Of a stretch of DNA of 64,000 nt, positions 22,631 through 26,897 are shown in pieces (the stretch's first letter is position 1; each line of letters opens with the position of its first letter). Source of the stretch: Parachlamydiales bacterium (GTDB taxonomy: Bacteria; Chlamydiota; Chlamydiia; Chlamydiales; SM23-39); assembly GCA_050302075.1 (NCBI GenBank), contig JBNLAH010000005.1, positions 132,288 through 196,287 on the forward strand, given 5' to 3'. The position numbers were made by a program, and so were the translations under genes. The notes under the pieces were generated by a model. The model had not been told where the DNA came from, searched no databases, and saw nothing but the letters and a program-made list of their open reading frames with translations.

Positions 22631-25600
22631 CTTCGTATGATTTAATCATTTCCATAGCTTCATCTGTTTCATTTTCTAAAGCAGCATTCCCGGCTTTTTC
22701 TCTAAAGAAGTCTTCTTGCTGCTCAGTAATTGCTTGCATGTCTTCTAAAGAAGTAATGATATGCGGCTTTAAGAAAATAACAATATTTCTATCATTTTCA
22801 AGATTATTATTTAAACTAAATGCAGCTCCAATTAAAGGTAGTCCTCCAAGGCAGGGAATACCTGATTTGCTTCGATTTTTGGTTTGAGTTACCATGCCGG
22901 TCAAGATTAAGAAATTTTTGTTTGGTACATGGAATGTTGTATCTAAGCTTGTTTTAGAGGTGGTGATTCCTTGAACATTATTAACAATCAAGTTTTGTTG
23001 GTCAGTTGTTTCTTGTCTGGAAAGTTTAAGTTGCAATGTCACAACATCCGAGTTACCAAGAACTGGAGTTATTTCCATATCAACACCAATATCACGATAT
23101 TCAATGTTGGTAGTAGAAACAGTATTTGCACCTTCATTTTGAACAAAAGAACCAATAAATGGGATGTTAAATCCAATAAATAAATTAGATTTTTTACTGT
23201 CTTGAGCAAATACTTTAGGGGTAGTCACGATGACAGTTTCATTATCTTGTTGAAGGGCTGTCATAAGCGATCCCATTGAAACAAATGACTGTCCTTTGTG
23301 AAAGATTACATCACCGATTGCACCTAAACTAAAGCCACTTGAGAATGGGATGTCCGTTGGAACAGGGGTAGTTGTAGCATTGATCTGCTGGAATTGTCCT
23401 GGAAACGTTCCACTTGCAGTAGAGGTGTTTGGGGGTAAATTGTTGAAGCTGGCAGATGCTTTATCTTTCCATTTGCCCTTACCTAGCCAATCTAGCCCAA
23501 AGTTCAAGGTATTTGTAAGTGATGTTTCGATAACTAGGACTTCAATAAAAACTTGTTTTAAAGGAATATCTAAACTTTTAATAAGCTCTCTTAGTCTTGT
23601 TAAAATTGGCTGTGATCCTGTGATCAGTAGTGAGTTAGTAACTTCTATCCATTGGATTGCATTAATAGTTTCTATTAAGGTTTTGTCGGCAGCTTTAGAC
23701 TCTAGCAAGTCTTTTGCAATTGATCTAAGTGCACTTCTAATTTGCTCTCCTTTGTGATACTGAAGCTTATAGACTAAAAAGTTAGTTGAGCCGGTAGGAG
23801 ACATAGTAGGTTCGTGGACTGATGATAAGCCATCAGATGGAGAATCAATTTCAGTTATTAAGCTCTTAACTTTGTCAATGGTCTGTTTGTCTCCAGTGAC
23901 TATTAAAGACTTATTAGACTCAACCCATCTTGTGTTGTTTAGCGCTTGGTGAAGTTTAGGGTCACATAAGCCACTCATCTTTAAGTTTTCACCAAATTCT
24001 TCAAGCTGTCTTTGGAGCTCGATTCCAGATAGATATTTTGGCTTATAAATAAAGAACTCTGCTTCTCCTTCTTGAAAACACTCGACGGCCCCAATAGGCG
24101 CAACATCAAATTTTTCAACAAGTGCTTGCGCTTTTTCTAAAGAAGCTGGATCACCTGTGAAAAGTAATGAGTTTGTCTCAGGTACATATTTCATGCTATC
24201 AAGGGCTTGAATGAATCTAGAATCAGCCGTGCCTGATCTTTTCAGGTCTTTAGTAATTTGTTTGACAGATGATTGAATTTGTGAGCCTGATGAGTTTCTA
24301 ATCTTATACAGTAAAAATGTTGATTTACCAATTTGCTGAATTCGTGACTTGGATGCTTCATCATCGATATTGTCTAAAAGTGCTTGTAACTTTTTTAACG
24401 CTTCAGGGGTACCTGTAAAAATAAATGATTGAGTTGTATCGTTGTATTTCATCCCCTTAATTGCGCTAAGAAGGGCAGAGTCAGCCAGATCAGACTTTTT
24501 TAAGTTGCTAGCAATTTCGTCTAACGATTTTTGAATAATCTCAGCTGGAATATTTTTTGGTTTATACATCAAAAAGTCAGTCTGTCCAATCCCAGACATA
24601 TCTCTTTTTACATCGAACTGAGCTACGATATTTTTAGCTTCTTCTAGAGTCTTAGGATAACCTGTTAGAAGAATAGAGTTAGTTTCTTTAACCCACTTTG
24701 CATTGTCTAAAGTATCAATTAGATCGGAGTCTTTAAGCCCTGTTGCTTTTAAATTGCTTGCAAACTTCTCAAGATCCTCTTCGACAATTGCTCCTGAAAT
24801 ATTTTGAAGTTTATATAAGTAATAAGAAGAAAGCGCATGTTTTTGGGCTTCTTCAGGTACATCAAAAGAATCTAATAAACTCTTAACCTTTTCTAAAGCA
24901 AACTCAGGCCCAGAAAACATTAAAGATCTCGACTCTGGAACCCATTTCATGGATTTGATGGCTTGAATAATAGGCTCGTTTTTTAGTCCTGATTTAGAGA
25001 GGTTTTGAACAACTTCTTTTAAATACTGTTCAGCCCTATCTTTTGGTACATATTTCAGCTGATAAATAAAATAAGTTTGTTGAGCTCCTGAAATTTCTTT
25101 AGAGTCAATATCTTTTAGCAACAGCTCCAACTTTTGTAAAGAAGCTGAATCACCTGTAAAGATAATTGACTGTGTATTTTTTATAAATTTCCCACTTTCA
25201 ATGGCTCTTAGGAGAGCTGGATTTGCTAAGTTTGAAGATTCAAAGCTTTGCGCCATTTCTTTTAATGACTCCAGGACTTGATCTCCAGTTAGATTTTGAG
25301 GGTGGTAAATAAGAAATTGATTGCTAATTGGCAACAGCCCATTTTTTTGGTCAAAACTCTCTAACAAGCTTTTTAGTTTTTTTATTCCAGACTCAGGGCC
25401 TGTGAATAAAAGAGAGTTTGTATCAGGCATGTACTTTGCTGATTCAATGGTCTCAATCAAATCCTTTTCTTCAACATCAGCTTTTTTTAGGTCCTTAGCA
25501 GTAGCTTTAAGGGCATCTAATAAAGTAGTGTGCGATGTGTTTTCTACTTTGTACATCCAAAAAGTTTTTTTGTGAGATAACAAATCTCCATTTGCTTCAG

Positions 25601-26897
25601 TGTCAGCTGATATTAGTATTTCTTTTATTTTTTCAAAAACTTCCGAGCTTCCGGTGAATAAAATTGAATTGGTAGAGGTGATCATTTTAGAGTTTTTCAA
25701 TGCATCGATCAAACTCTCGTCAGGATATTTCGAGCTGACTAGCTCTTCCGTATACTTGTCTAAAGCAGTTTTCAAACCGGCTAAGCTTAAGTTTTGTGGC
25801 TTATAGATATAAAATTTTGTAGAGCCTGCAAAGGTACCTTTGTCTGGATTGTCAATTGTAGCTAGCAGTTCTTTTATTTTTAAAATTGAGGTCGCACTGC
25901 CTGTAAATAAGATGGAATTTGTTTCTGGAATAAATGCTAATGAATTGATTGCATCGATTAAGTCTTTTTCAGGTGTTCCGCTTTCTTTAATCGAGTCTTT
26001 GATTTTGTTTAGGGCCTTAATAAGCTCTTGTGCACTTTTAGTAACTGGCTGGTAAATGAAAATATTTTCATTTTTAATTTGTCTGCCTTTCATGGGCCCT
26101 TTGCTTTCAACGTCAATACTTGTAAAGACTTTGATTGCTTTCTCAGCAAGCCTTGGTGTTGAGACTATATAAATAGTGTTCGTAGATTCCTGAGGAACTA
26201 AAATAAAAGGGTTTCCTGCTGCGAGGGGAGCCATAAGTTGATTTGCCAAACTGATAATATAGTTTGGATGATTATAACTGGCATGATATGACTTGATCTC
26301 GAGTGGAGTGTCAGGAGAATCTAAATTCTCAATTAACGAGTCGATTTTTTCTAGATTCGTTGTAATATCAGTTAATACAATTTGTCTTGTTTCAGGTAGA
26401 ACATCTAAGATGGCGCTTTCAGAGATCATCGATCCAATTATTGCTGCTATAGACTCTACAGACGTGTTTTGTATCTTGAATACCTTGGTTAAAATAGGGG
26501 CGCTTGAATCTATTTTTTCATTATCTTTAGATACTTGAGCTAGTTGCTTGACATTAGTAGCTTTTGTGATAATTAAATTGTTATCTTGCTCTAAGATATG
26601 CATACCGTTAATTCTTAAGGACTGAATTAACGTGGACATTAAACTGTCTTTAGTGATTGGTTCACTAGAGGTTACAGAGATAGTATAAGGCTCTAACTCT
26701 GCTTGATCATAGATAAAGTTCAGTGATGCTACTTTTCCAACAAATTTGACGTATTCAATCAACGATACATTCTTGTAGTCAATTGTATACCCCTGACTTG
26801 CTTGTTTGTTCTCTTTTGCTGAAATGCTATGAGATAAAAAACATCCCAAAAGAACAAATGGAAAAAAGAATTTGGTTTTACAAAAAACCATTTTCAT
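22623..26897 (-). CDS. sctC: Type III secretion outer-membrane secretin SctC (CdsC), unusually long at 1424 aa
   Basis: Signal peptide, N0-like domain, many Secretin_N-like modules, and a C-terminal secretin domain (VFIEVLVIETS...GIPCLGGLPLIGAAFS...IVIFLKPHII). Its position after pkn5 matches C. trachomatis CT673-CT674. Confidence 0.92.
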   Translation of the reverse strand: MKMVFCKTKFFFPFVLLGCFLSHSISAKENKQASQGYTIDYKNVSLIEYVKFVGKVASLNFIYDQAELEPYTISVTSSEPITKDSLMSTLIQSLRINGMHILEQDNNLIITKATNVKQLAQVSKDNEKIDSSAPILTKVFKIQNTSVESIAAIIGSMISESAILDVLPETRQIVLTDITTNLEKIDSLIENLDSPDTPLEIKSYHASYNHPNYIISLANQLMAPLAAGNPFILVPQESTNTIYIVSTPRLAEKAIKVFTSIDVESKGPMKGRQIKNENIFIYQPVTKSAQELIKALNKIKDSIKESGTPEKDLIDAINSLAFIPETNSILFTGSATSILKIKELLATIDNPDKGTFAGSTKFYIYKPQNLSLAGLKTALDKYTEELVSSKYPDESLIDALKNSKMITSTNSILFTGSSEVFEKIKEILISADTEANGDLLSHKKTFWMYKVENTSHTTLLDALKATAKDLKKADVEEKDLIETIESAKYMPDTNSLLFTGPESGIKKLKSLLESFDQKNGLLPISNQFLIYHPQNLTGDQVLESLKEMAQSFESSNLANPALLRAIESGKFIKNTQSIIFTGDSASLQKLELLLKDIDSKEISGAQQTYFIYQLKYVPKDRAEQYLKEVVQNLSKSGLKNEPIIQAIKSMKWVPESRSLMFSGPEFALEKVKSLLDSFDVPEEAQKHALSSYYLYKLQNISGAIVEEDLEKFASNLKATGLKDSDLIDTLDNAKWVKETNSILLTGYPKTLEEAKNIVAQFDVKRDMSGIGQTDFLMYKPKNIPAEIIQKSLDEIASNLKKSDLADSALLSAIKGMKYNDTTQSFIFTGTPEALKKLQALLDNIDDEASKSRIQQIGKSTFLLYKIRNSSGSQIQSSVKQITKDLKRSGTADSRFIQALDSMKYVPETNSLLFTGDPASLEKAQALVEKFDVAPIGAVECFQEGEAEFFIYKPKYLSGIELQRQLEEFGENLKMSGLCDPKLHQALNNTRWVESNKSLIVTGDKQTIDKVKSLITEIDSPSDGLSSVHEPTMSPTGSTNFLVYKLQYHKGEQIRSALRSIAKDLLESKAADKTLIETINAIQWIEVTNSLLITGSQPILTRLRELIKSLDIPLKQVFIEVLVIETSLTNTLNFGLDWLGKGKWKDKASASFNNLPPNTSTASGTFPGQFQQINATTTPVPTDIPFSSGFSLGAIGDVIFHKGQSFVSMGSLMTALQQDNETVIVTTPKVFAQDSKKSNLFIGFNIPFIGSFVQNEGANTVSTTNIEYRDIGVDMEITPVLGNSDVVTLQLKLSRQETTDQQNLIVNNVQGITTSKTSLDTTFHVPNKNFLILTGMVTQTKNRSKSGIPCLGGLPLIGAAFSLNNNLENDRNIVIFLKPHIITSLEDMQAITEQQEDFFREKAGNAALENETDEAMEMIKSYEDD
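23568..26063 (-). repeat. About 10 tandem ~83-92-aa protein repeats (Secretin_N / ring-building-motif-like) inside sctC
   Basis: Recurrent F.iYk..n......l...L......sgl.d..li.ai.s.k.v.etNSllFTG....l.k.k.Ll...D. Repeat ends: ETNSILFTGSATSILKIKELLATID, STNSILFTGSSEVFEKIKEILISAD, DTNSLLFTGPESGIKKLKSLLESFD, NTQSIIFTGDSASLQKLELLLKDID, ESRSLMFSGPEFALEKVKSLLDSFD, ETNSILLTGYPKTLEEAKNIVAQFD, TTQSFIFTGTPEALKKLQALLDNID, ETNSLLFTGDPASLEKAQALVEKFD, SNKSLIVTGDKQTIDKVKSLITEID, VTNSLLITGSQPILTRLRELIKSLD. Confidence 0.85.

Follow-up and report, generated by a model that had tools for sequence, protein, structure and literature searches.

Secretin necks are normally treated as fixed structures, with three N-domain rings in type II secretion systems (T2SS) and two or three in type III secretion systems (T3SS); the six-ring PilQ of Thermus is considered exceptional. 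We analysed the gene of a T3SS (injectisome) secretin, SctC, contained in a stretch of 64,000 nt from Parachlamydiales bacterium GCA_050302075.1 (contig JBNLAH010000005.1, positions 132,288 to 196,287), hereafter the window. In front of its secretin core, SctC carries a tandem array of modules whose number varies widely among chlamydial lineages and co-varies with the length of the protein encoded at the SctP position of the same operon, a candidate needle-length ruler.

All chlamydial injectisomes use a T2SS-like secretin, recruited independently of other injectisomes (PMC3459982), and it is already known that the chlamydial secretin CdsC is T2SS-like and oversized and that the basal body is elongated. 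In C. trachomatis, the elongated basal body measures 34 nm, which has been partly ascribed to the large CdsC (PMC4682100). CdsC of this species (CT674; 921 aa) and the SctC of the window are both T3SS secretins of T2SS-like ancestry (PMC3459982), are both encoded after sctQ and a Ser/Thr kinase gene, and both greatly exceed in length the secretins of model injectisomes (550-610 aa). They also share a homologous core: the CdsC fragment aa 531-921 aligns with the window protein, the motif DLPPKQVY of CdsC corresponding to DIPLKQVF. The two proteins differ in what precedes this core. CdsC has a Chlamydia-specific hydrophilic N-terminal domain of 250 aa followed by classical N0-N3 domains (published domain map, PMC4682100), whereas SctC from the window lacks such a domain, its N0 starting at aa ~36 directly after the signal peptide, and, unlike CdsC, contains nine additional modules between N2 and the N3 equivalent. 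The core starts at aa ~591 in CdsC, as read by machine from a supplementary alignment, versus aa 1111 in the window. SctC has far more N-domains than CdsC or the secretins of model injectisomes, in agreement with an earlier annotation of this DNA made from the sequence alone (the original prediction), which had contrasted its repeats with the N0, N1 and N3 domains of a typical injectisome secretin. The comparison of modules with Chlamydiaceae is drawn from the published CdsC domain map and from a CdsC-like relative (P0348; 48% identical to the CdsC core), which consists of N2, one module and then the core, rather than from a direct count. A search with the CdsC fragment aa 531-921 returned fragments and two relatives of ~535 aa, and no full-length CdsC; all the protein-search matches listed (best 120, best 150) were environmental homologues, and the genome scan gave only two relatives from metagenome-assembled genomes (MAGs).

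The best match of SctC in both sequence and fold is the T2SS secretin GspD of E. coli and Vibrio (5wq7, 5wq8, 5zdh), with which the N0-N1-N2 domains, the Secretin_N modules and the double-barrel core align. GspD differs in having three N-domain rings after N0, compared with twelve such domains in SctC, as known here from its sequence, and in its gspC-M gene context, as opposed to the T3SS context of SctC, which narrowly misses the curated cut-off for GspD. The best functional analogy for an extended neck is PilQ of Thermus thermophilus (757 aa), whose six stacked rings N0-N5 form, together with the secretin domain, a complex of 35 nm that spans a wide periplasm (PMC5745081). PilQ shares with SctC an unusually high number of N-domains of the beta-alpha-beta-beta-alpha ring-building type, but it is part of a machine for type IV pili and DNA uptake rather than of an injectisome, and it has five such rings versus twelve candidate rings in SctC and up to about 25 in relatives. 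The PilQ paper (PMC5745081) describes no comparable copy-number series or co-varying ruler.

SctC consists of a signal peptide, the domains N0, N1 and N2, ten modules (R1-R10), the secretin core and a short C-terminal helix pair, with R10 occupying the N3 position. The gene and its domains, all on the minus strand (-), are as follows, E values for the modules being those obtained with the repeat hidden Markov model (HMM) described below.

22623..26897 (-): sctC/cdsC-type secretin gene, 1424 aa, from the list of open reading frames (ORFs), with Pfam Secretin_N (x11), Secretin and N0; last in the sctN-O-P-Q-kinase operon
26817..26897 (-): signal peptide, aa 1-27 (MKMVFCKTKFFFPFVLLGCFLSHSISA, followed by KE), assigned by reading the sequence itself
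26553..26792 (-): N0 domain, aa ~36-115, from Pfam type_II_gspD_N0 and GspD N0-N1-N2 crystal structures
26319..26528 (-): N1 domain, aa ~124-193, from partial module-HMM matches and alignment with GspD/XcpQ N0-N1-N2 structures
26103..26309 (-): N2 domain, aa ~197-265, from alignment with XcpQ N0-N1-N2 (4e9j) up to aa 263
25851..26069 (-): module R1, aa 277-349, E=3.9e-30
25602..25820 (-): module R2, aa 360-432, E=1.8e-30
25350..25568 (-): module R3, aa 444-516, E=1.7e-32
25104..25322 (-): module R4, aa 526-598, E=4.4e-31
24861..25079 (-): module R5, aa 607-679, E=1e-32
24612..24830 (-): module R6, aa 690-762, E=4.5e-32, with positional orthology in relatives
24363..24581 (-): module R7, aa 773-845, E=3.4e-32, with positional orthology in relatives
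24105..24323 (-): module R8, aa 859-931, E=5e-34, with a structure model
23844..24062 (-): module R9, aa 946-1018, E=7.4e-33, with a structure model
23568..23786 (-): module R10, aa 1038-1110, N3 equivalent adjoining the core, E=6e-31; best Pfam Secretin_N stretch, aa 1042-1115
22755..23567 (-): secretin core (double beta-barrel and gate), aa 1111-1381, from Pfam Secretin, GspD cryo-electron microscopy (cryo-EM) structures and foldseek
22644..22748 (-): C-terminal helix pair, aa ~1384-1418, at the S-domain position, from helices H530-547 and H551-564 of the AlphaFold2 model of aa 855-1424

The type_II_gspD_N0 match (aa 40-109) scored 25.5 bits, slightly below the Pfam cut-off of 27, and the GspD and XcpQ N0-N1-N2 crystal structures aligned with aa 32-263 in a PDB sequence search (E=1.6e-5 to 5.7e-5). 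An N0-like domain followed by two N1-like modules at aa ~135-265 had been predicted; the domains are indeed present, but the alignment with GspD and XcpQ identifies the latter two as N1 and N2. At the other end, Pfam Secretin (PF00263) matched aa 1214-1381 (E=3.7e-32), covering positions 1-168 of the 169 in the profile, and the cryo-EM structures of GspD aligned with aa 1039-1400. From its position, the C-terminal helix pair might act as an S-domain. We also considered that SctC could be a liposecretin, from a lipobox-like LLGC19 in the signal peptide (Cys19, 26841..26843, minus strand), an idea that was dropped since the Cys is not conserved in homologues.

Pfam detected Secretin_N (PF03958) in 11 stretches of SctC, with a whole-protein E of 7.6e-76, and an HMM built iteratively from the 1424-aa protein itself recovered ten full-length modules, each with E<=4e-30 (90-103 bits), plus a partial match in N1. 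The modules recur with a period of 81-92 aa, composed of a 73-aa core and a linker of 8-19 aa. The original prediction had read ten consecutive repeats at residues 279-1110 (23568..26063), in agreement with the modules found at aa 277-1110, and the motifs that it quoted, F.iYk..n at the start and tNSllFTG....l.k.k.Ll...D at the end of each repeat, are visible in the module alignment. We modelled aa 855-1424 as a monomer with AlphaFold2 from an alignment of 54 sequences, which predicted for each of R8, R9 and R10 a beta-alpha-alpha-beta-beta-alpha order with predicted local distance difference test (pLDDT) values of 84-92, and low-confidence linkers between them. In these models, the fold of R8-R10 is thus the ring-building motif plus one additional short helix. 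In foldseek comparisons with the PDB, the best matches of the model were GspD secretins (5zdh, 6i1y, 5wq8; E~1e-23), followed by injectisome secretins of the InvG type (E~1e-16), and its three modules and core superposed on N1-N3 and the core of GspD. Structures of GspD, PilQ, pIV and InvG all matched SctC in the sequence and fold searches of the PDB, and with a PF00263 core and PF03958 N-domains the protein belongs to the secretin superfamily.

The resemblance to GspD raised the question of which secretion system SctC serves. Among NCBIfam models, the best was the GspD equivalog TIGR02517, which SctC narrowly missed (348.9 bits versus a cut-off of 351.35), while the SctC model TIGR02516 for the InvG/YscC class gave only 109 bits versus a cut-off of 238, and InvG and MxiD were weak PDB matches. 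Assignment to the InvG/YscC class, as had been predicted, therefore failed, sequence and fold being GspD-like, a known property of chlamydial injectisomes (PMC3459982); the low score for that class is expected, because the chlamydial SctC was recruited from a T2SS-like secretin. The prediction of T3SS membership, on the other hand, held. The genes of the window follow the order SctD...SctN-SctO-SctP-SctQ-kinase-SctC on one strand, and SctC is an injectisome secretin because its gene closes the sctN-O-P-Q-kinase operon. In the window and in 9 of the 12 other loci inspected, sctC follows the sctN-O-P-Q(-kinase) genes in the same orientation, and homologues with 4, 7, 9, 12, 14, 15 and 21 modules are located directly behind this same cluster, indicating that they represent one orthologous gene with a variable number of modules.

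That the protein could really be the T2SS secretin GspD, or serve both systems, and lie beside T3SS genes by chance would fit these family scores, the GspD structures as best PDB match in sequence and in fold, and the 'GspD/PulD' labels that homologues carry in several database sources. We consider it very improbable, in view of the conserved T3SS context and because neither the window region nor any of the 12 related loci has a T2SS gene (gspC/E/F/G-M) near sctC. It is further contradicted by the published phylogeny, which places a T2SS-like secretin in all chlamydial injectisomes (PMC3459982), by a separate one-module secretin in a Waddliaceae MAG (876 aa, ~34% identical), which is likely a GspD paralogue, and by the co-variation of module number with a T3SS-specific protein.

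The 120 closest database homologues of SctC are 1203-2066 aa long and contain 7-18 modules, their length following 660 + 79*N aa, where N is the number of modules (r=0.98). Representatives at 50% identity widened the range, from 4 modules (945 aa) to 23 modules (2368 aa). Among 183 non-redundant full-length relatives, the number of modules was 4-23, with a median of 9, and 16% of them had exactly 10; their sources were Chlamydiales, Parachlamydiales or Chlamydiota MAGs, and all 183 came from Chlamydiota-type loci. The array had been taken for an unusual expansion in this organism, which is not the case: ten modules is near the middle of the distribution in environmental chlamydiae, and the array is a trait of non-Chlamydiaceae chlamydiae with a variable copy number, not a peculiarity of this genome. 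Neither is the count uniform across chlamydial SctC proteins, given this range and the Chlamydiaceae type, which has only the N3 equivalent.

Comparison of the window protein with relatives containing 7-12 modules showed that R6-R10 line up in order with the final five modules of each relative, R10 being the most conserved (51-76% identical to their last module). Differences in copy number fall in the middle of the array; for instance, a 7-module relative (P0119) lacks R3-R5, and a 14-module one (P0005) has additional R5-like copies. Adjacent modules are up to 96% identical in P0121 (18 modules) and P0122 (21 modules; locus L013), and 79% identical in P0009 (15 modules; locus L010). The 96% identity of adjacent modules in some long forms indicates that duplication is continuing there, unlike in the window protein. 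The longest relative, P0126, with 23 modules, contains old modules only.

These recent duplications show that the process does occur in the family, and would be the one argument for attributing the array of the window to faulty assembly or to a recent tandem expansion that is neutral and has no function. We give this explanation practically no credence and rejected it. Pairwise identity between modules averages 33% for protein (22-44%) and 48% for DNA (maximum 56%), and a DNA repeat was sought in the array with Tandem Repeats Finder and none was found; recent expansion or artefact is excluded because of this divergence and the lack of a DNA-level repeat, and the array is old, as had been predicted when it was described as ancient and maintained. 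The ORF of 1424 aa is intact, module positions are orthologous across relatives, and independent contigs contain orthologues 98%, 91%, 79% and 64% identical to SctC, with ten modules in each of the full-length ORFs (79%, 64% and 62% identical). In the 91% identical contig (L015, 1350-5636), sctC is split over two reading frames, with 4 + 6 modules, which reflects a sequencing error or else a genuine frameshift or stop in the population concerned.

We then compared the number of SctC modules with the length of the protein encoded at the SctP position, which in the window corresponds to the following feature.

29674..30648 (-): gene at the SctP position, flanked by the YscO-like gene and SctQ, for a candidate needle-length ruler of 324 aa

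We used first ten loci and then 80 loci from a metagenome scan, anchored by HMMs for SctO, SctQ, the modules and the ends of SctP; the SctP-position protein was measured as the ORF directly after sctO, with SctO and SctQ as anchors, in 30 non-redundant loci. Its length was correlated with module number (Pearson r=0.85, p=4e-9), with a slope of 24.7 aa per module. Independent contrasts on a tree of the SctC C-terminus gave r=0.88 and 24.0 aa per module, and 24 of the 26 contrasts with a change in module number had the same sign. Likewise, contrasts on a tree of SctO plus SctQ gave r=0.87 and 23.4 aa per module, a correlation reached by none of 5000 permutations. Conversely, the lengths of SctO (r=0.23) and SctQ (r=0.20) did not scale with module number, nor did those of SctN and SctD in the first ten loci.

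The SctP-position proteins have a conserved N-terminus of ~100 aa and a conserved C-terminal domain of ~140 aa, and all their variation in length resides in a Pro/Glu/Lys-rich spacer between these ends. The 324-aa protein of the window shares with the YscP/SctP-FliK rulers its location between sctO and sctQ, the conserved N-terminus, the variable low-complexity spacer and the compact C-domain. All 79 of its database homologues are labelled 'hypothetical' and lack a Pfam domain, and the CdsP family of Chlamydiaceae has been reported absent outside Chlamydiaceae and Sororchlamydiaceae (PMC10448858). AlphaFold2 predicted a C-terminal domain (pLDDT 78-94) with the remainder disordered. A foldseek search of 350,542 PDB chains with this domain produced weak matches, FliK-C (2rrl, E=0.02) ranking third and PscP (5cuk, E=0.04; template modelling score 0.51 on the target) ranking fourth, both of them having the T3S4 fold that a ruler should contain. 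We thus regard the SctP-position protein as a candidate needle-length ruler with a predicted, weakly T3S4-like fold. In other injectisomes, the needle lengthens linearly with the size of SctP (Journet 2003, as cited in PMC4682100). As an alpha-helix, 24 residues extend about 3.6 nm. For the YscP ruler, the value is reportedly 1.9 A per residue, making 24 residues about 4.6 nm; both lengths are of the order of one N-domain ring.

Some lineages contain a second ORF, of ~200-240 aa, between the SctP-position gene and sctQ, which matches the HMM for the SctP C-terminal domain and, judging from that match, may be a duplicated switch domain.

Additional SctP-C-like ORFs: L013 6346-7017, L014 6507-7091, L040 4058-4774, L049 4318-5034, L062 3274-4017, L065 5185-5901

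From these data we consider it probable, with moderate confidence, that in the T3SS secretin of environmental chlamydiae the modules stack as rings that lengthen the neck, with the SctP-position ruler co-evolving. SctC would combine a GspD-type N0-N1-N2 head and a secretin core with ten ring-building modules in place of the single N3, and each module would oligomerise into one more periplasmic ring, as do N1-N3 of GspD and InvG and N1-N5 of Thermus PilQ. Ring formation by every module, the physical length of the neck and a needle-measuring role of the SctP-position protein are our inferences. With about 13 N-domain rings stacked at roughly 3.5-4.5 nm each, the neck would reach 45-60 nm, several times the length in model injectisomes. 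The number of modules would act as an evolutionary length dial, with gains and losses in the middle of the array and position-specific membrane-proximal modules R6-R10. Since the needle must traverse the neck, the SctP-position protein would have co-evolved, gaining ~24 spacer residues per module; the observed co-variation supports, indirectly, the idea in the original prediction of a neck lengthened by its modules, with stacked rings that extend the path of the needle.

Several observations weigh against this interpretation. The clade of the window is the largest negative outlier for SctP length, with 10 modules and proteins of 324-329 aa versus ~457 aa predicted (residual -129 aa, residual standard deviation 55), and two of seven informative sister pairs contradict the trend, which could itself arise because both quantities depend on a third variable, for example the thickness of the envelope. 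The SctP-position protein differs from YscP and FliK in that its sequence matches no family in Pfam, NCBIfam or the PDB, even at E<=10, and two pilins outrank the T3S4 folds (E=0.02-0.04) in the foldseek search with its C-domain. In the AlphaFold2 monomer, the modules appear as beads on low-confidence linkers of 8-19 aa, with a predicted template modelling score of 0.42. Finally, at 45-60 nm the neck would be longer than the 34-nm basal body of C. trachomatis and would require a periplasm far wider than the 14-29 nm measured in elementary bodies of this species.

The outlying SctP of the window clade, the opposing sister pairs, the linkers and the narrow known periplasm make a compressible or partly non-stacked array a serious rival, even if we judge it the less likely of the two. 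In such an arrangement there would be no rigid stack of ~13 rings: only the membrane-proximal, N3-like modules R6-R10 would form rings, the middle modules providing a tether that can be compressed or folds back, or sites to which peptidoglycan, SctD or the downstream lipoprotein bind, and the basal body would adapt to a variable periplasm width without lengthening several-fold. This would agree with the predicted disorder of the linkers, with position-specific conservation being confined to R6-R10 while the middle of the array turns over, and with the behaviour of the basal body in C. trachomatis, which shortens from 34 to 29 nm when the host is contacted, a contraction ascribed to flexible periplasmic domains joined by linkers (PMC4682100). 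Yet all ten modules keep the full Secretin_N signature with similar scores, pointing to a shared structural role, and N-domains of the same fold do form rings in GspD, InvG and PilQ. Additionally, if the middle modules did not extend the path, it would be difficult to account for the ~24 aa that SctP gains with each module over the phylogeny.

We found no description in the openly accessible literature of the tandem array of non-Chlamydiaceae SctC, its 4-23 range or its co-variation with SctP, an earlier mention being possible. What is new is that the SctP-position protein lengthens with the number of SctC modules, which suggests a length-tuned injection machine and connects basal-body length with the needle ruler in a way that can be tested. 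The injectisome secretin varies across the phylum from 4 to 23 modules, each a candidate ring, and this number continues to change. Stacking of the rings would mean that environmental chlamydiae have by far the longest secretin conduits known and that their periplasm or envelope at the injectisome differs greatly from that of Chlamydia. More tentatively, and with somewhat less than even confidence, we propose that the injectisomes of non-Chlamydiaceae Chlamydiota form a natural length series, in which 4-23 modules would set a basal body of ~30 to ~100 nm and an unannotated SctP-type ruler would co-evolve by ~24 residues per ring so that the needle clears the outer membrane. If true, this would imply very different envelope geometries among chlamydial lineages and offer a natural calibration of the molecular-ruler model, in ruler residues per nanometre of secretin. 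The co-variation also gives a likely function, as a candidate ruler, to a protein family annotated as 'hypothetical' outside Chlamydiaceae.

The remaining genes of the locus, also on the minus strand, are the following.

34113..35942 (-): SctD, a protein of the inner-membrane ring that contains FHA domains, 609 aa (NCBIfam TIGR02500, 175 bits versus a cut-off of 86)
31192..32532 (-): SctN ATPase, 446 aa (Pfam ATP-synt_ab and T3SS_ATPase_C)
30682..31188 (-): SctO, 168 aa (Pfam YscO-like, E=4.9e-47)
28616..29674 (-): SctQ, 352 aa (Pfam FliMN_C, E=1.7e-18)
27032..28600 (-): Ser/Thr protein kinase at the Pkn5 position, 522 aa (Pfam Pkinase, E=1e-43)
21686..22630 (-): probable lipoprotein, conserved, 314 aa, the gene sharing 8 nt with the 3' end of that for the secretin

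The 314-aa probable lipoprotein has no Pfam or NCBIfam match. In all related loci inspected, a homologue of 313-359 aa is encoded downstream of sctC, immediately behind it except in L006, and yidD adjoins. The homologues share an invariant Cys16 after a hydrophobic stretch, a helical middle region, two conserved hydrophobic helices and an invariant GWYFGG...YNER.YE motif, with a mean column identity of 58%. This protein is possibly a secretin accessory factor or pilotin. The T3SS operons of C. trachomatis are said to lack a pilotin, and the location beside sctC makes it a candidate for this missing component.

The Ser/Thr kinase shows in its C-terminal half a weak match to SpoIIE, a PP2C phosphatase-like domain (aa 363-466, E=7e-4), and its gene is missing between sctQ and sctC in several relatives (loci L004, L008, L010 and L011). 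In locus L007 (2750-9704), an island of glycosyltransferase and methyltransferase genes is inserted between the T3SS kinase gene and sctC, and an island of the same type replaces the upstream T3SS genes in L006 (1-6145). The 15-module sctC of L006, detached from other T3SS genes, is directly preceded by a gene (8079-9656) for a 525-aa protein, in which weak N0 and Secretin_N matches are fused to an inverse-autotransporter beta-domain (PF11924).

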